From a virus (taxonomy: Duplodnaviria > Heunggongvirae > Uroviricota > Caudoviricetes): a DNA stretch of 36,567 nucleotides. Both the position numbers and the translations under genes were made by a program. Positions within the stretch are counted from its first letter, which is position 1; every line of letters starts with the position of its first letter. Under the pieces are notes generated by a model. It was not told the origin of the DNA. It did no database searches and saw nothing but the letters and a program-made list of their open reading frames with translations. Location of the stretch: IMG/VR virus record IMGVR_UViG_2671180349_000007. One strand, given 5' to 3'. Shown here piece after piece: positions 12,356 through 29,184 of the stretch.

Positions 12356-12421
12356 ATTGCTCTAATAATTCCATATTTTTAAAACGTGATGTACACTCAT
12401 CACGTTTTTTATTAGAGCAAT
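12356..12421. promoter_or_regulatory. bivalent C1 operator pair enclosing a terminator hairpin
   Basis: ATTGCTCTAATAATT at 12356-12372 and its inverted partner ATTAGAGCAAT at 12405-12421 flank the hairpin aaaacgtgatg-tacact-catcacgtttt. Confidence 0.6.
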
Positions 12422-12435
12422 CTATAAGGTGCACT

Positions 12436-12654
12436 ATGTGGCCATTCCGACGGAAATATCACTACTGGCTGATCGCCTTTGTTACGCCGACCGGCGGTAT
12501 CAGGCATGTCATCACCAGGTATCGCAACAAGAGACTCACCTTAGCCAGAATTTTACAGGCTGCCATAGGTGAGGGACTGGATACAAATTGCGTAGTCCTT
12601 CCACCTTCATACTTAGGAAAAATGACCGAAGCACAAGCTAATACGGAACTTTGA
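12436..12654 (+). CDS. small hypothetical protein (72 aa)
   Basis: AAGGTG RBS; stop is followed 1 nt later by the next ATG. Confidence 0.45.
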   Translation: MWPFRRKYHYWLIAFVTPTGGIRHVITRYRNKRLTLARILQAAIGEGLDTNCVVLPPSYLGKMTEAQANTEL

Positions 12655-12655
12655 A

Positions 12656-13918
12656 ATGAGCACTTCAGCACAAAACCAATCAATCGAAAATGTATCTATC
12701 CCTGACGTCCTGAATGCCGGTATCCCGGCCATTATCCAGAACATCCGGGCCGCGCAACGCCGCGTTAGTTGTGATGACCTCACAGCACGTTTTTTTGATA
12801 ATGCGGTTCAGTCAGCGGAGATGCTTCACGCACAGCTTATTGATGTTTATAACGCAGAAGCTGATAGCCATAACTCCATGGTAGATGCAGCTGAAAATAT
12901 GCAGTTGGATCTCGGTCTGAAGGGTAAAGAAATTGAAGAGCTTCAGCTGGAAATTGAACATTTGAAACGCCAGCAACAGGACGCGATCGACGATGCGACG
13001 CATGACGCCAACCAGCGTGCTGATAATGCCGAACGTATAAGCATTGAGCTGGAAACAAAACTCAATGAAATGACCACGATGGTTGAACTGCGGAACTCAC
13101 AGATTTCAACGCTAAAATCTCAATATAAAGAGATCATGAAACTTGATCCTTTTAACCTTGAGAAACGCTATAACAAAGCTAAAAGCGAGCGACAGGAACT
13201 GCGTAAGCAGGTCGCCGACCTTAACCAACAGCTCAAAAAAACTATTAAAGATGCAAGCGAAGCGCGCGTGGCATTTGCTAATAAAAAAGCAGAGGTTACC
13301 GCGCTGGTTAATGAGAATGCCAAATTTGCGACGCTCAAGAAGGAAATGTATGGCATTACTGAGCGCCGTTTCCCTGCAAGCAAACTTCATCCGACGTTAG
13401 GGCAAATCTCCTTCTTCCCGCGCCTCCTGGCTTATGGGATCTCATCGCCTAAAGAGTTCAATAACGAGCGTCCTTATATCGTTTCTAAGCTGGACTTTGC
13501 TTATCAGTTCTGCTGCGACATGGGCTATGCCATTGATATCCGGATCAACGAATGGTTGATGCCAAACTTCCAGCCGTTGGCCATTTTCCGCGAGTTCCAG
13601 CCGGAAGGTTGGGTAGAGTTCTTCCATGAATTGATCTGTAAAGAGATGGAAAGCCGCCGCCCGGAACTGGTCCGTCGAGTTGAGTGGGCGCAAGAGGTTA
13701 TGTTGGCAGAGGCAGAGCTGCCGTTCGAATCGGAATTTATTGATGATCTGGGAGCTAAAGGGCTGCATACCCTGTTTGATGTGGTTACCCGCCGTCATGA
13801 GCAGTTGGTTGTCGAATTGGGTTTAGAGGAAACAGCGGCAAGAAGACTTCTCGATGTTTGCTATGCACGTAGCGATGCATGGGAAAAAGAGAACGGCGGC
13901 ACTATTTACGTTCGCTGA
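12656..13918 (+). CDS. coiled-coil protein with C-terminal globular domain (420 aa)
   Basis: Residues about 60-240 are E/K/Q/L-rich heptad-like; Cys/Trp-containing C-terminal domain; no recognised family. Confidence 0.6.
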   Translation: MSTSAQNQSIENVSIPDVLNAGIPAIIQNIRAAQRRVSCDDLTARFFDNAVQSAEMLHAQLIDVYNAEADSHNSMVDAAENMQLDLGLKGKEIEELQLEIEHLKRQQQDAIDDATHDANQRADNAERISIELETKLNEMTTMVELRNSQISTLKSQYKEIMKLDPFNLEKRYNKAKSERQELRKQVADLNQQLKKTIKDASEARVAFANKKAEVTALVNENAKFATLKKEMYGITERRFPASKLHPTLGQISFFPRLLAYGISSPKEFNNERPYIVSKLDFAYQFCCDMGYAIDIRINEWLMPNFQPLAIFREFQPEGWVEFFHELICKEMESRRPELVRRVEWAQEVMLAEAELPFESEFIDDLGAKGLHTLFDVVTRRHEQLVVELGLEETAARRLLDVCYARSDAWEKENGGTIYVR

Positions 13919-13937: not shown

Positions 13938-13971
13938 AATGCTGGTGGAGTGCGCCCACCAGCATTTTTTT
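13938..13971 (+). terminator. rho-independent terminator
   Basis: aatgctggtgg-agtgcgc-ccaccagcatt followed by a T-run; the stem contains a Chi octamer GCTGGTGG. Confidence 0.65.
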
Positions 13972-13990
13972 CGTCCAATGAGGAGGGCAT

Positions 13991-14497
13991 TTGAGTATTT
14001 TCAATAAACACGCACACCAGGAACGTCCGTACATCGTCATAGTAGATATTGATGGGACGATATCAGAGGCAACGGAAGACAGGCTGCATTTACTTCCACC
14101 ACCTGGCAAAGGTGCATTAACAGAGCACTGGAACGAGTTTAACCTTGCCTGTGACACTGATGCTCCCATCACTCCAGTTATTGATATGGTGCGCCAGTTG
14201 TCCGGCATTTACACCCTCTGGTTTGTAACCGGGCGCTGTGAGATAGCCAGGGATAAAACACGAGCCTGGTTGCGTAAGCACGTAACAAATGGGGCTGAGC
14301 CTTTGCTATCTATGCGTCCTGCCACCGATGACAGAAATGACGGTCCAGCAAAGATTGATCTCCTGAAGAAAATTGGTCTAAGTAAAATTGCGTTCGCGCT
14401 GGAAGATAAGATTGAAGTGGCGCGTGTTTTCAGGAGTCACGGCGTACTTACGTTAATGGTCAGGGAGTATGAAAACGCGCTTCTTCATCAACAATAA
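13991..14497 (+). CDS. HAD-superfamily phosphatase-like protein
   Basis: TTG start with GAGGAGGG RBS; motif I VIVDIDGT, then FVTGR and DKTRAW elements. Confidence 0.55.
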   Translation: MSIFNKHAHQERPYIVIVDIDGTISEATEDRLHLLPPPGKGALTEHWNEFNLACDTDAPITPVIDMVRQLSGIYTLWFVTGRCEIARDKTRAWLRKHVTNGAEPLLSMRPATDDRNDGPAKIDLLKKIGLSKIAFALEDKIEVARVFRSHGVLTLMVREYENALLHQQ

Positions 14498-14513
14498 TTG
14501 CTCTAATAAATCT
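14497..14513 (+). promoter_or_regulatory. C1 operator
   Basis: ATTGCTCTAATAAATCT, 16/17 match to consensus, overlapping the HAD stop codon. Confidence 0.65.
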
Positions 14514-14595
14514 TGATTTTTAAAACAGAGAAAGTGAAAATAAAAACATGCCGCAAGGCGCGGCATGTATCCAATCAATCACAGGAGCTGAAAAT

Positions 14596-14682
14596 ATGAA
14601 CACGGCATTCAAAATCATTATGGCCGCGATCTATTTCTGGCTGTTCTCTATCACTTTTGGCGGCATCGTCGCACATGGGTAA
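14596..14682 (+). CDS. small hydrophobic peptide (28 aa)
   Basis: AGGAG RBS 8 nt upstream; translation MNTAFKIIMAAIYFWLFSITFGGIVAHG. Confidence 0.35.
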   Translation: MNTAFKIIMAAIYFWLFSITFGGIVAHG

Positions 14683-14691
14683 GGGGGATGC

Positions 14692-15273
14692 ATGAAAGGC
14701 GAAGTGAAAGAGCGCGGCATGATTTTTAACGATGAGATGGTCAGGGCAATTCTTGGCGGGAATAAAACACAGACTCGCAGGATTGTTGAAGAAAAATTCT
14801 ATGGACGGGCAGTGGCCGCAGAGTTGCTTGCTAAACATTGTCCATATGGTCAACCGGGAGATCGTATTTGGGTTCGTGAAACCTACCGGGTACATGGCAA
14901 AGCGACGGACGTCGCAACGCTGGTTTATCGCGCAAGCGTGCGTAACTCCTGGACAGAACAAACGCACCGGGTTCCGGTTGAGGTTTGTAATAAGCCAGTA
15001 TCAGAAAAGTGGACGCCATCAATTCACATGCCGCGCTGGGCATCGCGCATTCTTCTGGAAATTACCAACGTGCGCGTTGAGCGGTTGAACGATATCAGCG
15101 AATGCGATGCAAGGGCTGAGGGCGCACCAACAGAATCGACCCTCATTGGCGATAAGCATTACCCAGGTTTCCGCAGCCTATGGAAATCAATTTATGGCGA
15201 AGATAGTTGGAACGCTAATCCTTGGGTGTGGGTAATAGAGTTTGAGCGTATTCAGGGGGCAACCAGTGAGTGA
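14692..15273 (+). CDS. conserved prophage protein, ASCH/PUA-like (193 aa)
   Basis: AAGGGGG RBS; motifs FNDEMVRAILGGNKTQTRR and GDRIWVRET. Confidence 0.6.
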   Translation: MKGEVKERGMIFNDEMVRAILGGNKTQTRRIVEEKFYGRAVAAELLAKHCPYGQPGDRIWVRETYRVHGKATDVATLVYRASVRNSWTEQTHRVPVEVCNKPVSEKWTPSIHMPRWASRILLEITNVRVERLNDISECDARAEGAPTESTLIGDKHYPGFRSLWKSIYGEDSWNANPWVWVIEFERIQGATSE

Positions 15274-15532
15274 GTCAAAATGCCAAATTAATGGCAACAA
15301 GATAGAACCGTGCGCGGCGTTGGCACAATCCCTGGAGCATGACGCTGAATACACGACGCGAAAAGGTCTGCTGAAATACAAAATCTATAACCATGAATTA
15401 ATTCATTCACAAGACCTGATCATGCTGCGGTCTGGTGAATTTTCTAAATCGCCTATTCGAGTTTCATTTTGCCCGTTCTGTGGTGAAAGTCTGAAAACGT
15501 GGGAAGCGGAGGCAACCAGTGAGCAAAATTAA
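15266..15532 (+). CDS. small protein with C-terminal CPFCG zinc-ribbon-like motif
   Basis: GTG start overlapping the previous stop; start uncertain. Confidence 0.4.
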   Translation: MSESKCQINGNKIEPCAALAQSLEHDAEYTTRKGLLKYKIYNHELIHSQDLIMLRSGEFSKSPIRVSFCPFCGESLKTWEAEATSEQN

Positions 15533-16220
15533 CTATCAGGCACTACGTGAGATAGCAAAACAGGCAACACAGGGCGAATGGGTCGCGTTTATTTCGACGG
15601 GTACAGGTACGTATGCTGTGCATACGCCCGGTGATAAACGATGTGAAGATGTTATCAAATGGACCGGCTTTGATGGACTGAAAAACGCAGAGAACAACGC
15701 TCGTTATATTGCCGCATTCAACCCAAAGGTTGCACTGGAGCTACTTGGTGAAATTAAGCGCCTGGAGGACACAAATATTGATGCTATGTGCCGAATAGCA
15801 CCGCTTGAGACTAAGCTCGCGGCTCTGGTGGCAGAGAACGCCGGGCTGAAACACGCAATGGCTGTAACTCTTGATCATGTGTCGGTCACGGATGCAGGGC
15901 AGGCCGGAGTTGCTGCAATGATTATCAACGATGCCCTACACCACAGCGAAACTCCAGCTACCGATGCTTTTCTGGCTGAAATTCGTGCGGAAGCACGCAA
16001 CGAGGGGATTAACTATACCGCCAGCCGTCTTGCTGCTGCGTTCAATCACGGATTTATCAATAAGTCTTTGCGTGAAGTTTTCGACGTTACGCGCATGATT
16101 CTGTCAGCGAAAGAAGAGTTGGCTAATGAACCGTACCCGATTGATGGCCTGTCCGGTGAATATGCGGAGAAATCCCTTGAAGAATGGGCGGAACAGATTC
16201 GCAAAGGAGCTGACAAGTGA
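15519..16220 (+). CDS. Ead/Ea22-like prophage protein
   Basis: Central coiled-coil and C-terminal TPATDAFLAEIRAEA motif; GTG start. Confidence 0.6.
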   Translation: MSKINYQALREIAKQATQGEWVAFISTGTGTYAVHTPGDKRCEDVIKWTGFDGLKNAENNARYIAAFNPKVALELLGEIKRLEDTNIDAMCRIAPLETKLAALVAENAGLKHAMAVTLDHVSVTDAGQAGVAAMIINDALHHSETPATDAFLAEIRAEARNEGINYTASRLAAAFNHGFINKSLREVFDVTRMILSAKEELANEPYPIDGLSGEYAEKSLEEWAEQIRKGADK

Positions 16221-16627
16221 AGAAGATGATTTTTGTCGCGGCATTGTTGGTGAATATCCAACAAGTGCATGCTTCAGCAGCTATTGTAGCCTCTACCGCC
16301 GCGACTACGGCTGCTGTAGCTGCTGCGAACTCTGCGAATATCGCAAACCAACAGGCACAGCGTGCTGCTAATGCATCAGCCAGCGTTCACCCAATCACCA
16401 TTAAGAGCAGTAAGCAAAATCTGGGATTCATAACGTGCGGCACGCGTTCTAATGAAGCTGTAGGCTCACTGGGATGTACGGTATATGGCGATAGTGAGCG
16501 CAGAGAAATTCCATGGAAAACGTGGCCCGGATACGTTCTCGGATCGAAGCTCCCTGCCAGCTACGAAGTAAATGCCGTATCGTTTGATCACTATAACGGC
16601 GTGGCAACTGTCTATTTTACATACTGA
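16217..16627 (+). CDS. secreted protein with N-terminal signal peptide (136 aa)
   Basis: MKKMIFVAALLVNIQQVHA signal-like N-terminus followed by an Ala/Thr-rich linker. Confidence 0.55.
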   Translation: MKKMIFVAALLVNIQQVHASAAIVASTAATTAAVAAANSANIANQQAQRAANASASVHPITIKSSKQNLGFITCGTRSNEAVGSLGCTVYGDSERREIPWKTWPGYVLGSKLPASYEVNAVSFDHYNGVATVYFTY

Positions 16628-16635
16628 GGCTCCGC

Positions 16636-17301
16636 ATGAAATTCTCCAAATTTTCTGAGTTGGTGAATCGTATTTTGTCCAACAACCACAGCCATCGTCG
16701 CGATATGGATGTAACGATCGTTGTTCATTCGCCTGGCAGCATTGGTTCAACACCATCAGTTGAGGTTCAGTCAATTCACGCTGGTTTTGATTGGGATTCC
16801 GGGAAAGTGCTGATTTTCCCAGCACAGCCACTGACCACGCTAACACCAGAACAGATTACTGATATTACTGATAGTGTGCGCAAAGGTCAGTCCTGGCACG
16901 CATATCAGGAATACAAGAAGCATAAAGAGCAGTTGGAAAAATTATCGATTGAACTTGATGCCGCAAAACAGCGCATTGCAGAGCTGGAGGGTAATTTCAC
17001 GGTGCTGGCAGTGGAGAATGCCTCAATGAAGCTGTTTATCAGGGGTTGTTGCTACGTGTTTGATGGCGAGCAGGATGAAATATCTGATGCGTATATCTGC
17101 GCAAGAGACGGAGGCATGCCGCAAACCCCGGCTACAGATGCTCTCCTGGCTGATGTACGGGCGGTGGCGTTTGACGAACTTCGCGCGGCGTTTGTCAGGC
17201 ACGCAAAAGTTGCAGGACTGGATGATGCCGATACCGTAACGCTTAAGGAAGTGACAGAAGCATTGTTGCATTGTGCGGAACAGATTCGCGCGCCTGAATA
17301 A
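16636..17301 (+). CDS. Ead/Ea22-like paralogue
   Basis: Shares the C-terminal TPATDALLADVRA motif with the 15519 gene. Confidence 0.55.
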   Translation: MKFSKFSELVNRILSNNHSHRRDMDVTIVVHSPGSIGSTPSVEVQSIHAGFDWDSGKVLIFPAQPLTTLTPEQITDITDSVRKGQSWHAYQEYKKHKEQLEKLSIELDAAKQRIAELEGNFTVLAVENASMKLFIRGCCYVFDGEQDEISDAYICARDGGMPQTPATDALLADVRAVAFDELRAAFVRHAKVAGLDDADTVTLKEVTEALLHCAEQIRAPE

Positions 17302-17397
17302 TTAAATTTAGTGTTGTAAATAAAATTTAATCCTTAACCGGAGGGATTTCTGCACCCTCATAACATCAGGAGGCCGCCCGAGGGGCGGTAATGAAAA

Positions 17398-18111
17398 ATG
17401 GCTGAATTAACAAAAGAACAATTAATCGAAGAAGCTAAATTAAAAATAGCGATTGCGAAATGCCATCCCAATTCAGGCGTGGCACGAGTAGAGGGTGAGT
17501 TATTCAAAATTGCACTGGCATCGCTGGAAGCAGATCCAGTTGCTTATATTTTCAAACATCCGGCCGGGAAATTATTCTGGGCTTTAACGGATGAAAGCAA
17601 TAAAGAGCAAGCGGACGTTATTCCTGTTTATGCTGCCGCGCCTGCGTCGGTTGTGCCGGATAATGCATCAGAGCCTCTTGCTTATGCTTACAAAGAGCTT
17701 ACGCCTGAGATTATGCGCAACCATTTAGCTGTATTCGAGCGATATGGAATAGCCCCAAACGATAGCTCTACCACAATTCAGGCACTGCGAATCGCGCTGG
17801 ATGGCATAGAGCGGAGCGACGCCATGCTTCATGGTGCCGAACCTGTAAGCCAAACTTACAAGTTGAACCAGCTATCGGGCAACTCTCCGGTAACTCCGGA
17901 TGATTGGATAAGCTGTAGTGAGCGAATGCCGGATAGCAAAACAGCTGTTCTTGTTGCCAGGGAGTTTGACAGGAAAGGTGACTGGCGAATGAAGTGGGCG
18001 ACTTACATACCGGGACATCCTGACGCTAATGATGGTTGGATAATTCCTGGTGCGTCGTGGATTCCATCACACTGGATGCCGTTACCAGAACCGCCGCAGG
18101 AGGCAAAATGA
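17398..18111 (+). CDS. DUF551-type phage protein (237 aa)
   Basis: C-terminal WISCSERMP...WMPLPEPP signature. Confidence 0.6.
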   Translation: MAELTKEQLIEEAKLKIAIAKCHPNSGVARVEGELFKIALASLEADPVAYIFKHPAGKLFWALTDESNKEQADVIPVYAAAPASVVPDNASEPLAYAYKELTPEIMRNHLAVFERYGIAPNDSSTTIQALRIALDGIERSDAMLHGAEPVSQTYKLNQLSGNSPVTPDDWISCSERMPDSKTAVLVAREFDRKGDWRMKWATYIPGHPDANDGWIIPGASWIPSHWMPLPEPPQEAK

Positions 18112-18368
18112 TGGATGTAAAAGAGAAGGTTTTGCAGGTGATGCGTTCCCGTGCTGCCCTGCAAGAGAAAGCTCTCGGCGGGGAATATCCATTCACGATA
18201 GCAACCTGGAATCTGCGGTTGGCAATGGAGAAGGAATTTCCTGATGAAGAATGGCGTTCGGCAGATTTGCGCAAAATTCTTATTGGGATGGCTAAAGACG
18301 GAACAGTATCCAAAGATACCCATGCCAGCCGGATTGGTCAGGCGGTATGGAGACTGGAGGTGAGGTAA
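18108..18368 (+). CDS. hypothetical protein (86 aa)
   Basis: ATG overlaps the previous stop (ATGA). Confidence 0.4.
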   Translation: MMDVKEKVLQVMRSRAALQEKALGGEYPFTIATWNLRLAMEKEFPDEEWRSADLRKILIGMAKDGTVSKDTHASRIGQAVWRLEVR

Positions 18369-18444
18369 TGAGCTGGCCTGAAGCATTTGCGATTGTAGGC
18401 GTAGCTATGGCGATTGCCGCTATTTTTATCTTCTGGGGGTAACG

Positions 18445-18678
18445 ATGGGAAAATTAACTTTTGTAGTCGAATTTGAGGATGGCAAAGAGCCACCTGTTAG
18501 CGCCAATCTTGATGTTGCTGGTGGCAGGCTGGTTTCGGTTCTATTTGGTGATTACCGCGACGACTTCTTTCAGCCTGAAGAAGTTGATGTAGTGCGAGAA
18601 GCATTAAACGAGCTAAGTGTTGATAACGATGATGCTCATGCGGAAATCATCAAAAAAATGGAACTGCTAACTCACTAA
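18445..18678 (+). CDS. acidic hypothetical protein (77 aa)
   Basis: ORF in track; same operon. Confidence 0.4.
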   Translation: MGKLTFVVEFEDGKEPPVSANLDVAGGRLVSVLFGDYRDDFFQPEEVDVVREALNELSVDNDDAHAEIIKKMELLTH

Positions 18679-18856
18679 ATTATCAATTATGGTGCTATCA
18701 CCTACGACACCGAGAGAAAATTTATAATGTCAAAAGTAAATGTTTTGATTTTTTCAGCAATTGTTGGCTTTGGTTTTACTGCCGGAGTGCAGATTTATAT
18801 TGCGTGGGAAAAAATCATCAACTACGCATGGAGTTGTTTTATTAAGTGAGGTAAGT

Positions 18857-19150
18857 ATGTGGAGAGGTAATAGTCATGGCAAAAGCCAGATGATACTTAC
18901 CGAATATAAGCTAGACCACAAAACCAATAAATCACGCTCAGTATATTTGCTCCGGCACAATAGCCGCGTAAGAAATACCTTGCTGGAACAAAATCTGACA
19001 GTTGAAATGGATAATTACGGTGGATTCAAGCCAACAATTTCGCTTGATGATTTTCCTCGTGGTTTAAGCGAAAGAGAAGCAATGCTGAAATTAGCAGAAT
19101 GGCTACAAAGATTAAGCATTGCTATTGAAGATAACTGGTCTGAACCTTAA
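18857..19150 (+). CDS. hypothetical protein (97 aa)
   Basis: GAGG RBS 6-7 nt before ATG 18857; a 39-aa hydrophobic ORF (18727-18846) lies just upstream. Confidence 0.4.
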   Translation: MWRGNSHGKSQMILTEYKLDHKTNKSRSVYLLRHNSRVRNTLLEQNLTVEMDNYGGFKPTISLDDFPRGLSEREAMLKLAEWLQRLSIAIEDNWSEP

Positions 19151-19156
19151 ATTTAT

Positions 19157-19531
19157 ATGATGACACTAAAACATTTTCTTGACCGCCCATTATGGGCGGC
19201 AGCCGCAGGCTATGACTTTAATTATATGGATTGCATGTCTTATACTGCCAATGCATACGACCATTCGTTCAGCCTGCTGTTTAATTCTTTAAGAATATTG
19301 CCGGAAACAGAAGTTGGAGAGCTTCATTTATGGCTATTGGGCTTTATCGCGGCTGTCGTTGGTATTGCTGTATGGCCTTTTATTTTCTGGCTGGTGGCTG
19401 TTGTAGTGTGGTTTAAGTGCAAGACATACCGGAAAAAGTATTTCTTAGGTGATGGAATGACTGATATTGCCAAAATGAACATTGAAAAATGGACTAAGGA
19501 ATGTGAAAAGAAATGGCGCAAAAAGAAATGA
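19157..19531 (+). CDS. membrane protein (124 aa)
   Basis: Hydrophobic segment LWLLGFIAAVVGIAVWPFIFWLVAVVVWF and basic C-terminus. Confidence 0.5.
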   Translation: MMTLKHFLDRPLWAAAAGYDFNYMDCMSYTANAYDHSFSLLFNSLRILPETEVGELHLWLLGFIAAVVGIAVWPFIFWLVAVVVWFKCKTYRKKYFLGDGMTDIAKMNIEKWTKECEKKWRKKK

Positions 19532-20172
19532 CTACTCTAACGACAGCATACTTACAGCAATTGGTATTTTTTGCAGGCGAGGCTACTTGTCATCCTGACG
19601 CAAACTATTTATTGGAATTTGAGAGGTTAGCGTCACCCGGTATCGTTCTGGAACTGGCCCAACAGGTGCTGGCCTTGAGACAAAAAGAGCAACATGAAAG
19701 TAATACGTGTAGATTGAATTTTGAGCAGTGGCTGGAACAGCAACGCGGAAAAATCGATGTGGACTGTGGTTGTGTGTCCACTGAAACATTCATGCACTGG
19801 CTGCGGGTAGCTTACGAGGCTGGCAACTATCCGGATATTCCGGATAGTTCGGTGCCAGCGCCAGGAAAGGGCGTCACCGGTGAACGTATCCGCATTAAGC
19901 CGCATGTTTATCGCGAACTGGTTAACCGTCTCCACGATACAGCGATCAAGTGTGCTGGCACCCAGCAATTACGAGAAAGAATTAGCCGTGTTTTGGGCGA
20001 CGTTATTACGCCATATCATCATAAACAAGCCGAGAAAAGCGGTCTGGAAAGGGGGCATCTTGAGGCAGCATTAAACATTAAGCCGGGGCATACGCTTGGC
20101 ATTATTGATGCACTGTTGGTTCATAAGATGGCCAGGGCTTTATTGTCGTTGGTAGGGGGCAATGACAACTAG
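19513..20172 (+). CDS. hypothetical protein (219 aa)
   Basis: ORF in track; overlaps the previous gene by 19 nt. Confidence 0.5.
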   Translation: MAQKEMTTLTTAYLQQLVFFAGEATCHPDANYLLEFERLASPGIVLELAQQVLALRQKEQHESNTCRLNFEQWLEQQRGKIDVDCGCVSTETFMHWLRVAYEAGNYPDIPDSSVPAPGKGVTGERIRIKPHVYRELVNRLHDTAIKCAGTQQLRERISRVLGDVITPYHHKQAEKSGLERGHLEAALNIKPGHTLGIIDALLVHKMARALLSLVGGNDN

Positions 20173-20256
20173 GAAAAAATCGCATTACTGGTGGCAAAGC
20201 CATAACTACTGATACAATATTTCTAGGTTAAAGATCTGGCATTAGGTAGAGATAGC

Positions 20257-20721
20257 ATGTTTCTTCATATCAATCCCGATTGGGCATCAGCTATTGCGGC
20301 ATTTGGGTCAGCAATAGCTGCTTTTATTAGTTTGCGCACAAGTAAAAAGCTTGGATTATTCGATAAGGAAAAATTTTATAGTGAAGCATTGATAAACTTT
20401 GCTGATAGGGCAAATAAAATAGCAACAGGAAAAGCTGGATCAGACTGGGATGTTAATGACGCAAGTAATATAATTCTTTCACTAAATGCCGCAAAAGAAA
20501 CTATTGAAAGTGCGCCAAAACCTATTCGAGAGCAACTAAAACAATATTACAAACATAATCTTTGCCATGAGATCATAACCGAATTAGAGGCTCACTCTCC
20601 CCCAGATTCAGTAATTGTAAGAGAACCATCAGAGTATGAAGGCAAGATCATGGGATTGTGGGATGAGATTAAAATATTTCTGGGTTATACAGTGGTATCA
20701 GAAGCAGACCTTGAAGATTAA
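20257..20721 (+). CDS. low-GC membrane-anchored hypothetical protein (154 aa)
   Basis: Gene is visibly AT-rich relative to its neighbours; N-terminal hydrophobic helix WASAIAAFGSAIAAFISL; lies directly upstream of phd. Confidence 0.55.
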   Translation: MFLHINPDWASAIAAFGSAIAAFISLRTSKKLGLFDKEKFYSEALINFADRANKIATGKAGSDWDVNDASNIILSLNAAKETIESAPKPIREQLKQYYKHNLCHEIITELEAHSPPDSVIVREPSEYEGKIMGLWDEIKIFLGYTVVSEADLED

Positions 20722-20828
20722 AGTTTGGTGTGACCACATCATTTCATCAATGATGCCCGAAGTGGGGAGTTTGACGATTGTCCGGTGATTTAAGCTGCAA
20801 AGTGCTGGTGCTTTATGCTTGTGAAGTT

Positions 20829-20858
20829 TATAATTGTGTACACATAACGAGTACACGA
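20829..20858 (+). promoter_or_regulatory. phd-doc promoter and operator
   Basis: TATAAT -10 followed by palindromic TGTGTACACA and GAGTACACG sites, matching the Phd autoregulatory operator as I recall it. Confidence 0.6.
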
Positions 20859-20865
20859 GGTGTTT

Positions 20866-21087
20866 ATGCAATCCATTAACTTCCGTACCGCGCGTGGCAA
20901 CCTTTCTGAAGTGCTCAACAATGTTGAAGCCGGGGAAGAGGTTGAAATCACCCGCAGAGGCCGTGAGCCAGCAGTAATTGTCAGCAAGGCTACTTTCGAA
21001 GCCTACAAAAAAGCGGCGCTGGATGCTGAATTTGCATCCCTGTTTGACACCCTGGACTCCACCAACAAGGAACTGGTTAACCGATAA
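20866..21087 (+). CDS. phd: Phd antitoxin
   Basis: 73-aa protein [26 protein letters not shown]... recognised as P1 Phd. Confidence 0.95.
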
Positions 21088-21467
21088 TGAGGCATATATC
21101 ACCGGAAGAACTTATTGCGCTTCATGATGCGAATATAAACCGCTACGGCGGCCTGCCGGGAATGTCAGATCCGGGTAGGGCAGAGGCCATTATCGGGAGA
21201 GTTCAGGCCAGAGTTGCCTACGAAGAGATCACCGACCTTTTCGAAGTCTCCGCCACCTACCTGGTGGCTACAGCGAGAGGGCATATATTCAATGATGCCA
21301 ATAAGCGTACCGCGCTAAACAGTGCGCTGTTATTTCTACGCCGTAACGGGGTGCAGGTATTTGATTCACCTGAACTGGCAGACCTTACCGTAGGGGCTGC
21401 GACCGGAGAGATATCTGTATCTTCTGTCGCCGACACGTTACGTAGATTGTATGGTTCCGCGGAGTAG
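21087..21467 (+). CDS. doc: Doc toxin (Fic-fold kinase)
   Basis: 126-aa protein recognised as P1 Doc; ATG overlaps the phd stop (TAATG). Confidence 0.95.
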
Positions 21468-21471
21468 ATTA

Positions 21472-21651
21472 ATGGCATGTAAATACAACAAATTGTCCCG
21501 TGAAGCGTTAAAGATGCTTCTTGATGGCGTGAGTCGCCGCGAGGTAAAGCAATACCTGGTTGGTAAGCAAATTGGTGCCAGGACCGCTATTGCTGTGTTA
21601 TGCCGTCAGGAAATGGTTGTGCTTAAACAGAGAATGCCGGGCAGCAGATAA
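21472..21651 (+). CDS. small post-doc protein (59 aa)
   Basis: GGAG RBS; sits where I recall P1 pdcA. Confidence 0.4.
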   Translation: MACKYNKLSREALKMLLDGVSRREVKQYLVGKQIGARTAIAVLCRQEMVVLKQRMPGSR

Positions 21652-21678
21652 AGCCCAATCAGTGATGAAAGGTGTGAT

Positions 21679-22722
21679 GTGAAAGCCGTAATTACTCCCT
21701 TTGTACAAAAAGAGCTTGGCGTCGCCACATTCAAAGTGGATCAGGAAGTCAGAAAGCTGGTGGAGGCTGGCCGTAAATTTATTATGGAGCCGGTGCCGCG
21801 TGAGTTAATCGAGCACATGGACGACGGCCTCGTTGTTTCCGAGCAAACTATGGCAACAAATGAGGCGTTGCAGCCGTTTTTTAACAGCGATGAACTGTTT
21901 CGCCGTATTGGTGGAATTGACTCGCTGGTGGCGTGGTTGCGCAGGAAAGAGGGGCAATGCCAGGCCGCAGATCGTAGCTGGTGTGACAACCATATTGTCC
22001 ACGCAGAACGAGACAATAGCGCGGTGTTGTTGTGCTGGCATCACGATAACCATTACCGGATGCGTGGTTTTAATGAGCTGAAAGAAACGCTGCATAATAA
22101 TCGCGTTAACTGGATACTGGATGTCGCCCGTCAGGAAATGGGGCTTTCAGATGGCCATGATTTAAGTATTCAGGAACTGTGCTGGTGGGCTTTCATGCGC
22201 AACATGATGCACCTGATGCCGGAAGAAGTTTGCCGTATATCAATAAATAAGATGAAAGCCGCAACGCAGGATAGCGGACCTCTGAAAGAGGCGGATATTC
22301 GCCCGTATGACGATCGCGCTACAGCATATGTTCAGATGATGGAAGAACGCGCCGCGCCGATGCGTGCAAAAGTATGCTCTGTGGATGTTGACTCCGACCC
22401 TGGCATGGCGCATTTCAAAATACCAAAACTGCAATCGCTAAAATTACCTGAGTACATGGACTTTGTTGCTTCCCGTCCATGCTGTGGGTGTGGAGCGGCG
22501 GGAGCTGGCGCTCACATTACGCCTTATATCGTTCGTCATAGTCGATTATGCGCGCATGACATTTACGCAATTCCTCTGTGCCAGTCATGCCAGCGTGATA
22601 TTGAGCGTGACCGCGATAATTGGGAGAAGACGCACGGTAGGCTGGCGATGCATCAACGATTGTTCTTTGATTACGCGCTTGGAGTCGGCGCTATCACAAG
22701 TCACTCGTCGAGCGTTAGATAA
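21679..22722 (+). CDS. Cys/His-rich protein (347 aa), pdcB-position
   Basis: GTG start; clusters CDNHIVH, CWHHDNH, CCGCG, CQSCQ suggest metal binding. Confidence 0.55.
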
Positions 22723-22723
22723 A

Positions 22724-22762
22724 ATTGCTCTAATGTATTGCTATTTCTTTAATAGAGGGTAT
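22724..22762. promoter_or_regulatory. C1 operator pair upstream of lpa
   Basis: ATTGCTCTAATGTATTG plus an inverted partial site TTTAATAGAGGG. Confidence 0.5.
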
Positions 22763-22810
22763 TATATTCCACGTTGATTAGTTGACATGGGCTAATCAGT
22801 AGGTGACAGG

Positions 22811-23263
22811 ATGTTACTTAACTGGCAGGGACGCCACTTCATGGAAATAAATCACTCACGAATAACATCGTATGAGATTGCGGATTACATGATCCGCACT
22901 AAGTCTCTTCTATCAGCGAAAGAACTCGCAGCAATCCTTGAAAAGGAATACCCGCATCTGGATGTCGATAAGCGCGACGTTTATCTGCGCTTAAAGGCTA
23001 TCGCTGTGTCTAAGTATTCGTCTGTTTTGATTGATGACAGTACACGCCCACGTAGATTTCAGATCCACTCTTTGAATCCTGAATTCTTTCGCCGCAGCCG
23101 CGCGCCGCGCCGGTTTGATGAAAAACTCCAGAACGAACTCTATATGACGCAGGACGAAAAGGAACGCCGGGAGCACCAGCCTTGGGTAATGGCGCGTCAA
23201 CTTTTCAATAAGGTGGCCCGTCAGCACCGTCATTACGGTAATGCCACATCCGCACGTATCTGA
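22811..23263 (+). CDS. lpa: late promoter activator Lpa
   Basis: 150-aa ORF, C1-controlled, immediately upstream of pacA, as in P1. Confidence 0.7.
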   Translation: MLLNWQGRHFMEINHSRITSYEIADYMIRTKSLLSAKELAAILEKEYPHLDVDKRDVYLRLKAIAVSKYSSVLIDDSTRPRRFQIHSLNPEFFRRSRAPRRFDEKLQNELYMTQDEKERREHQPWVMARQLFNKVARQHRHYGNATSARI

Positions 23264-23348
23264 TTGATTGCTTGCCCGTTCCGGGCCTTTTGACATGTGA
23301 CTTTCGTTACCCTCGCGTCAAAAAGAGTTTTTACGAAAGGAAGCATAA

Positions 23349-24542
23349 GTGACCTGGGACGATCACAAGAAGAATTTTGCTCGCCTGGCGCGAGATGGTG
23401 GTTACACCATCGCACAGTATGCCGCCGAGTTTAATCTTAACCCTAATACCGCACGTCGTTATCTCCGTGCCTTCAAAGAAGACACTAGGACTGCGGACAG
23501 CCGCAAGCCAAATAAGCCAGTCAGGAAGCCACTAAAAAGCATGATCATTGATCACTCTAATGATCAACATGCAGGTGATCATATTGCGGCTGAAATAGCG
23601 GAAAAACAGAGAGTTAATGCCGTTGTCAGTGCCGCAGTCGAGAATGCGAAGCGCCAAAATAAGCGCATAAATGATCGTTCAGATGATCATGACGTGATCA
23701 CCCGCGCCCACCGGACCTTACGTGATCGCCTGGAACGCGACACCCTGGATGATGATGGTGAACGCTTTGAATTCGAAGCTGGCGATTACCTGATAGATAA
23801 CGTTGAAGCGCGGAAGGCCGCGCGCGCTATGTTGCGTCGGTCCGGGGCCGATGTTCTGGAAACCACTCTTCTTGAAAAGTCTCTTTCTCATCTCCTTATG
23901 CTGGAGAACGCCAGGGATACGTGTATTCGCCTGGTGCAGGAAATGCGCGATCAGCAAAAAGACGATGATGAAGGTACTCCGCCTGAATACCGTATCGCGA
24001 GCATGCTAAACAGCTGTTCCGCGCAGATAAGCAGCCTGATCAACACCATTTACAGCATCCGGAATAACTATCGAAAAGAAAGCCGGGAGGCGGAAAAGCA
24101 CGCTTTGTCTATGGGGCAAGCTGGCATTGTTAAGCTGGCATACGAACGAAAGCGTGAAAATAACTGGTCAGTGCTGGAAGCAGCTGAATTCATCGAGGCG
24201 CATGGTGGGAAAGTTCCGCCCCTGATGCTGGAGCAAATCAAAGCCGATCTGCGTGCTCCTAAGACCAATACTGATGATGAGGAAAGGCAAACAGCCGTCG
24301 GTGGCCCTTCTCTTGAAGATCTGGATAAAGTTGCGCGAGAACGGGCCGCCAACCGCCGCGCCGATGCCGCATTGTGGATTGAGCAGCGTAGGGAAGAAAT
24401 CGCCGATATCGTTGATACAGGCGGTTATGGAGATGTTGATACTGAAGGTGTATCAAACGACCCATGGCTGGAACAAGACCTGGACGAAGACGAGGAGGAA
24501 GACGAAGAAGTTACCCGCAAGCTATACGGGGATGATGATTAA
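23349..24542 (+). CDS. pacA: pacase subunit PacA
   Basis: 397-aa protein starting [18 protein letters not shown] (GTG start); contains the pac site; acidic C-terminal tail. Confidence 0.9.
23542..23700. other. pac packaging site
   Basis: Four TGATCA hexamers (23542-23581) and three TGATC(A/G) hexamers (23672-23700) flanking the cleavage region, inside pacA; seven Dam sites. Confidence 0.85.
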
Positions 24543-26026
24543 TGGCCAGAAGTTGCGTAACGGATCCACGTTGGCGCGAGCTGGTGGCGCTATATCGTTA
24601 TGACTGGATTGCTGCCGCTGATGTTTTGTTCGGCAAAACACCTACCTGGCAGCAGGATCTGATTATTGAGTCTGTGCAGGAACAGGGTAGCAAGACATCT
24701 GTTTCGTCTGGTCACGGTACCGGGAAATCAGACATGACTTCTATCATGATCATGTTGTTCATAATCATGTATCCCGGTGCCCGCGCCATTATCGTTGCGA
24801 ACAAAATTCAGCAGGTAATGACCGGTATATTCAAGTACATCAAGATAAACTGGGCTACTGCCACCAGCCGTTTTCCATGGCTTGCTGATTATTTTGTTCT
24901 GACAGAAACCGCTTTCTATGAGGTTACTGGTAAAGGTGTATGGACTGTAGTACCGAAGGGCTTTCGTCTGGGAAGTGAAGAAGCTCTCGCCGGTGAACAC
25001 GCAGATCATCTTCTGTATATTATCGATGAAGCCTCCGGTGTCAGTGATAGAGCTTTCGGTATCATCACTGGTGCTCTTACCGGACAGGATAACCGCATCT
25101 TATTACTGTCACAGCCTACACGCCCAAGCGGCTATTTCTACGATACTCACCATAAACTGGCCAAGCGTCCTGGTAACCCTGATGGCGTTTATACGGCGAT
25201 CACGCTTAACAGTGAGGAATCACCGTTGGTAACGCCAGCATTTATCAAAATGAAGCTGGCGGAGTACGGCGGGCGTGATAACCCTATGTACATGATTAAG
25301 GTACGCGGCCTATTCCCTAAATCACAGGATGGCTTCCTTCTTGGACGTGATGAGGTTGAACGTGCAACGCGGCGGAAAGTCAAGATTGCCAAAGGATGGG
25401 GCTGGCTTGCATGTGTGGACGTTGCTGGTGGTACGGGACGGGATAAGTCCGTTATCAATATCATGATGGTGTCCGGCCAGCGAAATAAACGCCGTGTAAT
25501 CAACTATCGAATGCTGGAATACACAGACGTTACAGAAACGCAGCTTGCCGCCAAAATTTTCGCAGAATGTAATCCTGAGCGATTCCCAAATATCACCATA
25601 GCGATAGACGGCGATGGCCTGGGTAAAGCAACGGCGGATCTGATGTACGAGTATTATGGTATTACCGTACAGCGTATACGCTGGGGTAAAAAGATGCATA
25701 GCCGTGAAGATAAGAGCCTGTACTTTGATAAACGTGCTTATGCCAACGTTCAAGCCGCAGAGGCCGTAAAATCTGGTCGCATGAGACTGGATAAGGGTAA
25801 TGAAACTATTGAGGAAGCGTCGAAAATCCCTGTAGGGATTAACTCCGCAGGTCAATGGAAGGTGATGTCAAAGGAAGATATGAAGAAAAAACTCAACCTG
25901 CACTCACCGGACCATTGGGATACATATTGTTTCGCTATGTTGGCGAACTATGTTCCCCAAGATGAAGTGCTTAGCGTCGAAGACGAAGCGCAGGTTGATG
26001 AAGCTCTGGCATGGCTTAATGAGTAA
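24542..26026 (+). CDS. pacB: pacase/terminase large subunit PacB
   Basis: 494-aa ORF translationally coupled to pacA (ATGA overlap). Confidence 0.9.
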
Positions 26027-26028
26027 AA

Positions 26029-26045
26029 ACTTGCTCTAATAAATT
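26029..26045 (+). promoter_or_regulatory. C1 operator at the start of the ImmI-like region
   Basis: CTTGCTCTAATAAATTG, 15/17 match to consensus, 3 nt after the pacB stop. Confidence 0.55.
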
Positions 26046-26178
26046 GTGTTTTTTGACTGCCGATGTTACATTGAACCTGACCTCTTGCGCCTTGAGGCAT
26101 TTTCGGTTTATGCTTATCAGGCACCTCAGTAAAACGGGTGCCGGGATTGGAACCCCGGATAATGTCAAAGGCGACACA

Positions 26179-26200
26179 GACGCCAAAAGCGTCTTTTTTT
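26179..26200 (+). terminator. intrinsic terminator or attenuator
   Basis: GACGC-caaaa-GCGTC followed by seven T residues. Confidence 0.55.
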
Positions 26201-26224
26201 GTGTCATGCCATCGCACGGCCATA

Positions 26225-26320
26225 CGTAGCGTTTAGCTCAGAGATCAATGGTAGTGCTGGCTGGGCTGCCGAAAGGCAGGCCGGTTCCCTTTGACGCCGG
26301 TAGTTCCAACCCAGTCAGTG
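26225..26320 (+). ncRNA. c4-like antisense regulatory RNA (boundaries approximate)
   Basis: Multi-stem structure (ctggg...cccag enclosing a GAAA-tetraloop hairpin and a ccgg hairpin) exposing GTTCCAA/GGTTCC, complementary to the two GATTGGAACC loops at 26145-26154 and 26334-26343; position upstream of icd-ant as in P1 ImmI. Confidence 0.3.
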
Positions 26321-26385
26321 CTACCGCCATTGAGATTGGAACCTCACGCGGTAGCTCCTTAACTTAGTCAAAGGAGGCTGCCATT

Positions 26386-26607
26386 ATGGCTACTATCCCT
26401 ACCCCAACTCATCCTGAATTTATCTGGCGCTTTTACTCCTGCCAGAAACGTCACTATCACTTCGTTATTGCACCGACAGAAGATGAGGCTCGCTCTCAGC
26501 TTCCTGATGCACCCTGTATTTTCTCCGCCCGTTTTTCTACTGATTCGCGCAATTCTCTCAGTTACTGGTGCCTCCCTGTTAACACTTCTGCTCAGGAGGG
26601 ACTATGA
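26386..26607 (+). CDS. icd: Icd-like protein (73 aa)
   Basis: AAGGAGG RBS; 73-aa ORF overlapping the ant start (ATGA), the P1 ImmI arrangement. Confidence 0.55.
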   Translation: MATIPTPTHPEFIWRFYSCQKRHYHFVIAPTEDEARSQLPDAPCIFSARFSTDSRNSLSYWCLPVNTSAQEGL

Positions 26608-27659
26608 GAACGTCATTAGTCACCCGTGAAGAGATGATCGAGGCAATTGAACAGCACACTGCCTGTATCAGTACCAGGGATATACCGGGCGTTATTGCCA
26701 ACTACTTCATGATCACCAAACAACTTTACCGGAGAAAGGACAAGAACGCTGTTCACCGCATTCTGTTGTCTGATATCCGCGAATACCTGCTCGAACAGGG
26801 GCATCTGAATTACGCAACCGTCGCAGCCGAAACACGCAAGGAGGCACACAGAATGAAAGCAAGCAAACCAGATGTTGTCGTTACAAAGCCTTTGACAGCA
26901 ACCACACCAGCACCGGTCATGGATGCTATCCCCAACACCGGAGACACAATCGACAGCCAGACGCTGTTAAAGATGGTTAATGAGGCGCGTAAGTTATGTG
27001 GGGAACCATTAGTAAGAAATAATAAGTTTATTGAGAAGGTTGTGGATGAGCTTGAAGGTGAGACCTACACAAAAAGTGTAGGTCGCAAAAATGGTGCAAA
27101 CATAGACATTATCACCATGACTTTCAAACAAGCCCTGCGAGTCGCCGCGCGCGAGTCAAAAGCGGTCCGCCGTTCGCTGATCGACAAGCTGGAGGAGTTG
27201 CAGCAGGTTAGCGCTGCTTCTCCAGCGATCCCCCAAACATTGCCCGAAGCTCTGCGCCTGGCTGCCGAACTGGCTGAACAAAAGCAACTTCTGGAACAGA
27301 AAGCCCACCAGCTAAATCAGCAGCTGGTGGCCGCAGCCCCCAAAGTCGATTTTGCCGACCGGGTATCAGTGGCTAAGGGGATCCTGATTGGAAATTTTGC
27401 AAAGGTTGTTGGACTTAAGCAAAACGCGCTGTTTGCCTGGTTACGGGAGAACGGCATCCTGATTGCGTCCGGCGGACGTAAAAATGTGCCATTCCAGCAG
27501 TACATCAACGCCGGGTATTTCACTGTGAAAGAAGTGGTGCTAGATGATGAAGATGGCTACCAGATACGGCTGACGCCTCAATTAACGGGGAAAGGCCAGC
27601 AGTGGTTGACGCGTAAGCTGCTCGATGCTGGCTTGTTAAAACCGGTGGCGGCTGAATAA
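26604..27659 (+). CDS. ant: antirepressor Ant, KilAC-type C-terminal domain
   Basis: 351-aa ORF coupled to icd; C-terminal ILIGNFAKVVGLKQNALFAWLRENGIL region typical of phage antirepressors. Confidence 0.7.
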   Translation: MRTSLVTREEMIEAIEQHTACISTRDIPGVIANYFMITKQLYRRKDKNAVHRILLSDIREYLLEQGHLNYATVAAETRKEAHRMKASKPDVVVTKPLTATTPAPVMDAIPNTGDTIDSQTLLKMVNEARKLCGEPLVRNNKFIEKVVDELEGETYTKSVGRKNGANIDIITMTFKQALRVAARESKAVRRSLIDKLEELQQVSAASPAIPQTLPEALRLAAELAEQKQLLEQKAHQLNQQLVAAAPKVDFADRVSVAKGILIGNFAKVVGLKQNALFAWLRENGILIASGGRKNVPFQQYINAGYFTVKEVVLDDEDGYQIRLTPQLTGKGQQWLTRKLLDAGLLKPVAAE

Positions 27660-27666
27660 TGGAAGA

Positions 27667-27688
27667 ATGCCCGGTTGATGCCGGGCAT
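27667..27688. terminator. hairpin between convergent ant and c1
   Basis: ATGCCCGG-ttgatg-CCGGGCAT followed by an A/T-rich stretch. Confidence 0.45.
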
Positions 27689-27691
27689 AAT

Positions 27692-28543
27692 TTATTGCGC
27701 GCTTTCGGGGTTGTCGTTTACTGGCTGCCCCTTCTTAGTTTTACGGCTGCGCGTAACTGATGCGGCTGACTTAACCTTTTTCTCTTCGCGAGTGATGGCA
27801 ATTTGTTTTTTTACATTTTCAATATCTGCCAGGCGATATATTTTTGCCTGCGGCCAGCGGTCGCAGATGATCGGTTCTATGGAGTCATAAAGGCTAAATT
27901 TTGCTTTCTCGAATTCACCGTTGATGATGATTCCATCACGGAGAGTTTCATCGCAGATAAACACGCCACACAGCGGCACATGGTAACTAACTGATTTACC
28001 GTTATTGTAGTTAGGACTACTGGAGATGTAGTGAACGCGCAGCATTGTTTCGCTAAAGCCGTGTACGCGCATACGGAATTTTTCATCCTCCGGGTACTGC
28101 TTCATTAGCTCTTTTGTTGCTTCCAGGTTCTCTATGTATTTCGCACTGTGCTCATTGAACCCCGCGCTTTTTTGGATGCGAATGTCCTTATCAATCAGAT
28201 GAATAATGCGGCCAGCGGTCATGTTGACGCTGTTTACAGCTTCTGTCTGATAGGTCGTAACCTTACGCACACCGCGAAGGATGTTAGGCACAGGATATAA
28301 AATAGTCTTTGGGATATTTAGGTCTGGGTACTGTTCCAGTTCCCGCGCCATTAAAGTCCATTTATCAATTTCAGCCTGAATGCTGTCCGTTTCTTTGAAC
28401 GGCAGAACGACAACCGGGCGTACAGGACGACCGTCGCTGGCGGCATCAACGTGTTGGGCGCGTGCAACAGCTTTTTTTAGAAAGAGATCCCTGAAGCTGA
28501 CGAACTCCTGGTACAGTTGTTCGCCGTAGACATAATTTATCAT
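27692..28543 (-). CDS. c1: C1 master repressor
   Basis: 283-aa protein MINYVYGEQLYQEFVSFRDLFLKKAVARAQHVDAASDGRPVRPVVVLPFKE... recognised as P1 C1. Confidence 0.95.
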   Translation of the reverse strand: MINYVYGEQLYQEFVSFRDLFLKKAVARAQHVDAASDGRPVRPVVVLPFKETDSIQAEIDKWTLMARELEQYPDLNIPKTILYPVPNILRGVRKVTTYQTEAVNSVNMTAGRIIHLIDKDIRIQKSAGFNEHSAKYIENLEATKELMKQYPEDEKFRMRVHGFSETMLRVHYISSSPNYNNGKSVSYHVPLCGVFICDETLRDGIIINGEFEKAKFSLYDSIEPIICDRWPQAKIYRLADIENVKKQIAITREEKKVKSAASVTRSRKTKKGQPVNDNPESAQ

Positions 28544-28637
28544 TGATCCTCCTCCAGAATTGACATGGTCAATAACGCCCGGCTGAGAAAACCGGTCATT
28601 ACTGACCTATATTATAGAGGGATCAAACAAAAATAAT

Positions 28638-28654
28638 AGATTTATTAGTGCATT
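28638..28654 (-). promoter_or_regulatory. C1 operator between coi and c1 (Op99a-like)
   Basis: agatttattagtgcatt, a partial reverse-complement match to the operator consensus. Confidence 0.45.
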
Positions 28655-28863: not shown

Positions 28864-29101
28864 AATTATGCCTCACTGTATTGACAACACAGAGCCTGAA
28901 GCTCTGACCTACTGTTTCACCCATGATCCATGCTGGGGTAATCTAACAACATTGCGCTGTGTGTAAGATGAGCAATGCATAGCTGTAATGCCGTTGTATA
29001 AGGTTTCCCTGTTTGCTCATTTCCTTCTGAGCCGCTCTACAACGCTGAAGACACATTAAATAGTGAATCCAAAGCCGTATTACGTAACGGCGGCAAAACT
29101 A

Positions 29102-29118: not shown

Positions 29119-29184
29119 TGTCAAACAACTATGAAAAACAATCCAGTTTTTAGCTGGTGGAGTGGGATTTTTCTCTCAAAATTT

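Follow-up and report, generated by a model that had tools for sequence, protein, structure and literature searches.

Twenty-two operators of the C1 repressor have been counted in phage P1, for which an asymmetric 17-bp consensus, ATTGCTCTAATAAATTT, has been given (PMC8546580). The two at the locus described here are OpmgRa and OpmgRb. In the P1 GenBank record, OpmgRa is a 'monovalent C1-controlled operator' controlling pmgR and pmgS, and OpmgRb is likewise monovalent; the P7 record gives the same pair the names Op(sht a) and Op(sht b) and assigns it to the control of the sht operon. The wording 'former Op86a/b' in GenBank implies that the sites had been described earlier, and a full-text literature search on these operators, with the original P1 operator papers outside its reach, returned nothing relevant. 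Both records annotate the operators, and that of P1 also a predicted promoter, PpmgR, with no terminator annotated at the site; the examined part of the P1 record, roughly 33 kb, has no terminator feature at all.

Other C1-controlled promoters of P1 offer two useful comparisons. In the bivalent operators Obanab (Op72ab, P1 68667-68694) and Oc1ab (Op99ab, P1 94166-94193), the two 17-mers overlap by 6 bp within a 28-bp near-palindrome and their centres are 11 bp apart. In Plpa/Olpa (Op94), Pdmt/Odmt (Op68) and P4cre/Oc1e, a monovalent operator points toward the gene; counted along the operator, the -35 is at 15-17 and the -10 at 37-41, and these units have no second, inverted operator downstream.

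A catalogued operator pair in the pmgQ-pmgR gap

The stretch of DNA analysed here (the window, 36,567 nt) is a P1-like phage-plasmid. Its positions 11600-13200 are 98% identical to P1, P7, RCS47, SJ46 and others, and the same stretch was found in about 690 plasmids of PLSDB. An 81-bp gap separates pmgQ from pmgR, a gene reported to be essential for P1 (PMC10695390; bioRxiv 10.64898/2025.12.28.696737), and most of this gap is taken up by a 66-bp unit that consists of two C1 operators and a hairpin between them (Table 1). The unit does not differ from the P1 sequence, which is also the majority variant among about 200 fetched loci, and it shares with OpmgRa/OpmgRb and PpmgR of P1 and with Op(sht a/b) of P7 the same 66 bp, the position in the gap, the orientation and the neighbouring genes. 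The element was thus already known: the 66-bp unit is a re-discovery of the catalogued P1 operator pair Op86a/Op86b (OpmgRa/OpmgRb).

Table 1. Features at the pmgQ-pmgR junction and elsewhere in the window (window positions; P1 positions where stated)
Feature	Position	Strand	Remark
tRNA gene	1137-1209	+	Rfam 64.7 bits; position of P1 trnI (tRNA-Ile, CAT anticodon)
Op82	8732-8748		upstream of pmgL-pmgQ; P1 annotation
pmgQ (hdmD in P7)	11653-12354	+	last gene of the pmgL-pmgQ operon; ORF list, P1/P7 annotation
pmgQ TAA stop	12352-12354	+	one base before OpmgRa
OpmgRa (former Op86a), ATTGCTCTAATAATTCC	12356-12372	+	C1 operator; 14/17 consensus match; identical to P1 82152-82168
PpmgR, annotated predicted sigma-70 promoter	-35 TTGCTC 12357-12362; -10 TAAAAC 12380-12385	+	P1 GenBank
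Alternative pmgR promoter	-35 TTCCAT 12369-12374; -10 TACACT 12392-12397 (the loop)	+	candidate deduced in this analysis
8-nt T-rich spacer	between OpmgRa and hairpin	+	sequence read
Hairpin 5' arm, AAAACGTGATG	12381-12391	+	perfect 11-nt inverted repeat
Hairpin loop, TACACT	12392-12397	+	6 nt
Hairpin 3' arm, CATCACGTTTT	12398-12408	+	perfect 11-nt inverted repeat
T6 run, then ATT	12405-12410	+	terminator tail and OpmgRb 3' end overlap here
OpmgRb (former Op86b), ATTGCTCTAATAAAAAA	12405-12421	-	C1 operator; 14/17 consensus match; identical to P1 82201-82217
Shine-Dalgarno, AAGG(TG)	12426-12431	+	sequence read
pmgR (shtA in P7)	ATG 12436 through 12654	+	ORF list; P1/P7 annotation
pmgS (shtB in P7)	12656-13918	+	second gene of the C1-controlled operon; ORF list, P1/P7 annotation
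Terminator-like hairpin, AATGCTGGTGG...CCACCAGCATT + T7	13938-13973 (hairpin 13938-13966)	+	3' of pmgS; -18.1 kcal/mol
c1 repressor gene	27692-28543	-	280/283 identical to P1 C1 (99%)
loxP, 14-nt perfect inverted repeat GATAACTTCGTATA, 8-nt spacer	29244-29279		just after Oc1e (29185-29201)

The statistical case for the two sites is clear. Each agrees perfectly with the consensus over its first 13 nt, and the window as a whole holds 10 matches with at most three mismatches, where 0.21 were expected from shuffles and none of 100 shuffles reached 10. A repeat finder returned the outer arms of the unit as perfect inverted copies of 13 nt, spaced 40 nt apart. The operators are convergent, separated by 32 bp, with their centres 49 bp apart. 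Consensus match, a c1 gene on the same replicon and orthology were all found, as expected of monovalent P1-type C1 operators.

A preliminary description of this DNA had placed two inverted operators at exactly these coordinates and had suggested that the downstream operon could be under repressor control, and both points are borne out: the sites are the annotated OpmgRa and OpmgRb, and pmgR and pmgS behave as early genes of the repressor-controlled class in two RNA-seq tables (see below). Its term 'bivalent' was wrong, since the sites lie 32 bp apart and GenBank has them as two monovalent operators, and Obanab, with which it proposed to compare them, is built from overlapping 17-mers, unlike the pair here. 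In common with Obanab and Oc1ab, OpmgRa/OpmgRb are convergent 17-bp sites whose ATTGCTC ends face outward, and they enclose a C1-controlled promoter for which TTGCTC in the first site can act as the -35; they differ from them in the distance between the sites and in the hairpin that occupies the gap.

The junction is not confined to close relatives of P1. It is kept in Cronobacter phage JK004, whose PmgS is 69% identical to that of the window and which encodes, along with the same operator pair, a C1 that is 77% identical; it is also kept in Salmonella (Newport) plasmids of the pCVMN1543 type (PmgS 68% identical) and in one JK004-like metagenome contig, the single match of a metagenome scan for units other than the P1 type. 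A scan of contigs from genomes with PmgS gave only two loci, 98% identical, and a profile scan of viral contigs only close relatives. Among the 22 distinct variants aligned from the three lineages, positions 1-15 of OpmgRa are invariant and OpmgRb is nearly so. The length of 66 bp is likewise common to the three lineages, the exceptions being three 67-bp variants that arose by slippage in a T- or A-run.

A conserved hairpin at the 3' end of pmgQ

The perfect 11-bp stem and T-run between the operators, also noticed in the preliminary description, stand up to closer analysis. As RNA, the hairpin folds with -13.4 kcal/mol (z = -5.7), a value equalled by none of 200 shuffles, and it is one of only four perfect hairpins of at least 11 bp with a loop of at most 7 nt in the 36.5-kb window. 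Its first base lies 27 nt past the pmgQ stop, on the + strand. The 7-bp core of the stem that contains G+C contributes -8.5 kcal/mol and is followed by the tail TTTTTTAT; four T's of the T6 run are able to pair with the A4 just 5' of the stem. A simple terminator scan of the window did not list the hairpin at 12381-12408, because the scan extends the stem as far as it can pair, which leaves just 4 T's among the next 8 bases. With the full 11-bp stem formed, the unpaired T's before the next A are TT only, which counts against a terminator. In an RNA that contains both operators, the outer arms can extend the hairpin to -26.9 kcal/mol. Rfam has no family at the region, all matches having E > 0.7.

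Comparison across lineages tells more than the fold itself. In all of them the unit is exactly 66 bp, apart from the slippage variants mentioned above, with an 11-bp stem, a 6-nt loop and T6, the latter being invariant in all variants (alignment columns 50-55). The stem sequence, by contrast, has turned over, with CATGGTG/CACCATG in JK004 and pCVMN1543 (-14.0 kcal/mol each) versus CGTGATG/CATCACG in P1. In the alignment of the 22 distinct variants, 97.1% of the cells are paired, against 38-72% in slid controls. Two compensatory swaps are found, from G-C to A-U at columns 31/48 and from A-U to G-C at columns 34/45; this covariation has a depth of three lineages, and the two pairs probably reflect one change each between two clades. 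One-sided changes leave a G·U pair on the + strand in 13 cells, and on the - strand 3 of the 7 unpaired cells would be G·U, a bias that, counted as independent events, is at least 8 versus 3 and lacks significance on its own. The bias toward G·U on the + strand points to an RNA read in the pmgQ direction rather than to a palindrome in DNA. The hairpin is thus supported as a conserved RNA-level structure at the 3' end of pmgQ, and the comparative support for it is good, not overwhelming.

Could the palindrome act at the DNA level only? It might be the site of a dimeric protein, or a cruciform or bend that promotes cooperation of two C1 monomers across 49 bp, with or without Lxc, and have no role as RNA. 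The fixed spacing of the 66-bp unit in three lineages and a convergent orientation that is the same as in true bivalent operators would agree with this, and compensatory changes preserve DNA symmetry too. Nevertheless, we consider it improbable. A protein site should conserve its sequence, and here the stem sequence turns over while pairing is kept; the cells that are G·U on the + strand, 13 versus 3, would correspond to A·C mismatches if the - strand or a cruciform were the paired form; and the hairpin has an A-rich stretch before it and an invariant T6 behind it, as intrinsic terminators do. The strict 66-bp spacing leaves room for some constraint on C1-C1 geometry.

The conserved RNA hairpin that we favour carries the features of an intrinsic terminator: a stable stem with a U-run, a location at the 3' end of the unit on the transcribed strand, and conserved pairing. 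With the A-tract/hairpin/U-tract organisation of known terminators it has in common a stem of -8.5 to -13.4 kcal/mol with a 6-nt loop, A4 before and U6 after, as well as its position right behind the last stop codon of an operon and the maintenance of pairing by compensatory change. It differs from typical examples in that its stem has only four G-C pairs, its U-tract doubles as part of a repressor site and a promoter -10 seemingly lies inside its 5' arm or loop. Most likely, the hairpin is a putative intrinsic terminator of the pmgL-pmgQ operon.

Early expression of pmgR-pmgS and the position of its promoter

Published RNA-seq of P1vir infections, given as gene-level log fold changes and not as absolute levels, places pmgR and pmgS among the early genes. 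At 10 min in the wild type, the genes pmgL-pmgQ had values of 5.4-8.0, with pmgQ at 7.0, followed by pmgR at 9.0 and pmgS at 10.0 (PMC8201110 Table S1). The latter two values are within the range of other C1-controlled early genes at that time (pmgT 9.7, dmt 8.8, ant1 10.0; PMC8201110 Table S1). The same step from pmgQ to pmgR/pmgS was present in the dksA host at 10 min (PMC8201110 Table S1), and a second data set gave 5.9, 8.0 and 8.2 for pmgQ, pmgR and pmgS at 10 min (bioRxiv 10.64898/2025.12.28.696737). Thus, in two published P1vir tables, expression at 10 min steps up 4-8-fold from pmgQ to pmgR/pmgS, which supports an early promoter within the 81-bp gap, in agreement with the annotated operators. 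From pmgS to pap, there was a drop of 1.5 log2 at 10 min (PMC8201110 Table S1).

At 30 min, pmgQ, pmgR and pmgS reached 11.66, 10.81 and 11.70 in the wild type and 11.23, 10.44 and 10.59 in the dksA host (PMC8201110 Table S1). The lower value of pmgR (10.8) than of pmgQ (11.7), in spite of a promoter of its own, would fit partial termination between them, and the equality of pmgS and pmgQ in the wild type counts against termination; being gene-level log fold changes, these values neither prove nor refute it.

Where in the gap does this promoter sit? The preliminary description overlooked that candidate promoter elements overlap the hairpin itself. In the annotated PpmgR, a 17-bp spacer joins a -35 inside OpmgRa to a -10 on the 5' arm, and transcription would be expected to start at about 12392, in the hairpin loop, so that OpmgRb covers about +14 to +30. 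Its geometry, with the -35 at operator position 2 and the -10 at position 25, is that of P1ban and also of P2pmgT. As a promoter it is weak, scoring 3.7 with a rough sigma-70 position weight matrix that we built ourselves from consensus frequencies, against a median of 5.2 for the best site per random tile. Its -10 lacks the T at -7, and the A at -11 is a G in JK004 and in a P1-like variant (the L056 type; five loci, some on the same contigs).

The alternative listed in Table 1 has the terminator loop as its -10. Its start would be expected at about 12404-12405, the first base of OpmgRb, so that OpmgRb covers +1 to +17 and OpmgRa -49 to -33. The -10 falls at operator position 37, exactly as in Plpa/Olpa, a promoter annotated without the word 'predicted'. 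With the same rough matrix, no other combination at the junction outscores it in P1 and JK004, nor does any other within the unit in Newport, where a site upstream scores marginally higher. The loop reads TACACT in P1 and TATCAT in JK004 and pCVMN1543, and, with TACGCT as a further form, T1, A2 and T6 are invariant while positions 3-5 vary. Its weak point is a poor -35 without TTG: the -35 elements of Plpa, Pdmt and P4cre have TTG (TTGCTA, TTGTTT and TTGATT, respectively), unlike TTCCAT in P1, TTTACT in JK004 and TTTAAT in Newport. Neither this candidate nor the annotated one rises above the random-tile background in P1 with the rough matrix.

It is only tentatively, and as a reading less likely than not, that we propose the loop as the -10 of the early pmgR promoter. 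On this proposal, the same 28 bp of DNA would serve as a terminator to polymerases that arrive from the late operon and as a promoter core to free polymerase, a pair of inverted C1 monomers would hold it from both sides (about -49 to -33 and +1 to +17), and the PpmgR hexamers of GenBank would be wrong or secondary. If it were true, the unit would be a compact and portable 66-bp 'insulator plus repressible promoter' cassette.

Three further promoter positions were tried and rejected. A leftward promoter from Op86b would be TTGCTC-17-AGTGTA, which is not -10-like, and there is no leftward gene. A promoter 3' of Op86b with TATAAG at 12423-12428 would give a leaderless start on the Shine-Dalgarno sequence, and the hexamer is absent in JK004. 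A late promoter of the Lpa type at pmgR is not apparent, there being no -22 box and -10 like those of LPpmgL, LPhot and LPpac.

In P1, all annotated operator-promoter geometries put the -10 at operator position 25 or 37-41, and with either of these the start would be at or beyond the loop. The leader left after either start is unstructured (z = 0.3). A pmgRS mRNA that starts inside or after the hairpin lacks its 5' arm and would therefore escape the terminator.

The reading of the gap that we prefer, and regard as fairly probable, gives it three functions: a C1-bracketed early promoter, a terminator of the late operon and the nesting of the promoter in the hairpin. It builds on the identity with Op86a/b, on the conservation and covariation of the hairpin and on the early-class expression of pmgR and pmgS, and from there we infer that transcripts terminate, where exactly they start and what each operator does. 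Two asymmetric, convergent 17-bp C1 sites would bracket the early pmgR-pmgS promoter, one of them over or just upstream of the -35 and the other at or just downstream of the start, and the promoter would be off in the lysogen. The pmgL-pmgQ operon would be driven by the Lpa-dependent LPpmgL and by C1-controlled sigma-70 promoters, and + strand RNA arriving from pmgQ would form the stem and U-run, acting as intrinsic terminator and 3'-end stabiliser of pmgL-pmgQ. The -10 of pmgRS would overlap the 5' arm (annotated PpmgR) or the loop (the alternative), and its transcripts, devoid of the 5' arm, would not be terminated. In this way the unit would insulate the late operon from the early one. Upstream, the P1 annotation has the late promoter LPpmgL and C1-controlled sigma-70 promoters with Op82 and Op83; when C1 is active, the Op82/Op83 promoters are off and LPpmgL is without Lpa, so that the terminator would mainly matter in lytic growth.

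The preliminary description also raised a more elaborate role for the repressor, in which C1 on Op86b (and Op86a) alters termination, so that both read-through from pmgQ to pmgR and initiation are controlled. The overlap of Op86b with the U-tract at 12405-12410 and the location of the hairpin exactly between both sites speak for the idea, and polymerases can be stopped by proteins bound a short way past a pause or termination site. However, the footprint of an elongating polymerase extends roughly 18 bp downstream of the active site. C1 on Op86a would then stop it near 12338-12340, inside pmgQ, and C1 on Op86b near 12387-12390, before the 3' arm has been made. Because polymerase would stop before the hairpin is complete, bound C1 would be a plain roadblock and would not act through the hairpin, and a modulation of termination by C1 is sterically unlikely. 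Moreover, active C1 also shuts off the upstream promoters, the sigma-70 promoters by way of Op82 and Op83 lying over them and LPpmgL by way of its need for Lpa, whose gene is C1-repressed (Olpa). We hold a repressor-tuned terminator to be very unlikely.

Equally hard to credit is a leader attenuator, in which pmgR transcription would start upstream of 12381 (for example, within the pmgQ 3' end or Op86a) and the hairpin would end its own transcript prematurely, setting a low basal level or awaiting an antiterminator: the rough matrix identifies no strong sigma-70 promoter and the outer arms can form the -26.9 kcal/mol structure, as such a reading would have it, but pmgR and pmgS rank near the top of the early genes in expression at 10 min, annotated P1 geometries put the start at or beyond the loop and no antiterminator is known for P1.

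Under the preferred three-function reading, a late, Lpa-dependent operon and an early, C1-repressed operon that includes the essential pmgR seem to be divided at the pmgQ/pmgR gap by a very compact boundary, and the unit might be used as a small repressible promoter that brings its own upstream terminator. The general importance is small, as this is a catalogued P1 regulatory site, with a modest value for P1 biology, P1-based vectors and phage-plasmids. Our additions to it are modest as well: comparative evidence on the hairpin, transcriptome support for the early promoter and the nesting of the promoter in the hairpin.

Neighbouring genes and the rest of the window

Downstream of pmgS, the terminator-like hairpin at 13938-13973 is likely the 3' end of the pmgR-pmgS unit; it carries no annotation in the P1 record. 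A 70-aa ORF on the - strand (12222-12434) that crosses the palindrome was treated as spurious, being without annotation in P1 and P7. Pfam gave nothing informative on PmgQ, PmgR and PmgS. Remote homologues of PmgS, with 20-23% identity over 99% of the length, are encoded by plasmids of Citrobacter freundii (pCF5125-2, 3001-4302) and Pantoea agglomerans (NZ_CP141613.1), where they stand in a different gene context and bear the RefSeq label 'DNA-directed RNA polymerase subunit alpha C-terminal domain-containing protein'. Since PmgS is expressed early and has been reported as non-essential, a non-structural role is perhaps worth a look.

C1 operators were located in the window at 12356, 14497, 26030, 28638 (- strand), 29102 (- strand), 29185 and 31150, the last being of the Op2/ref type. 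Most of them have a T-rich extension 3' of the 17 bp (tgattttt, atattttt, attatttt, tgtttttt), which may be part of a -35/UP region or provide contacts for the repressor or Lxc. At 14497-14570, the TTTTTAAAAC motif of Op86a, TTGCTC-17-TAAAAC, recurs behind Op88 (OpmgT). A 10-bp G+C-rich hairpin at 14546-14568, 3' of Op88, can be read as a terminator on the - strand only and would be in the pmgT leader.

The operator-like site at 26030-26046, CTTGCTCTAATAAATTG, has two mismatches and is followed on its 3' side by Rfam matches to isrK (61.9 bits) and C4 antisense RNA (77.1 bits), at 26121-26199 and 26244-26331. From these matches, 26030-26331 looks like an immI-type (c4/ant) immunity module between pacB and c1; the corresponding part of RCS47 carries an antirepressor annotation, and in P1 immI is elsewhere, near 48 kb. 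Judged from operator coordinates, the window has about 2.6 kb more than P1 between Op88 and Olpa and about 1.6 kb more between Olpa and Oc1a. The best phage matches cover only 60-69% of positions 14500-29300, and parts of this region match hundreds of Stx-converting and lambdoid phages (with annotations such as Ant, HNH endonuclease, DUF551, EaA and Roi), which points to a mosaic accessory region at about 14500-28600. Past this region, the loxP site that follows Oc1e indicates that the window runs through the origin of the P1 map into cre.
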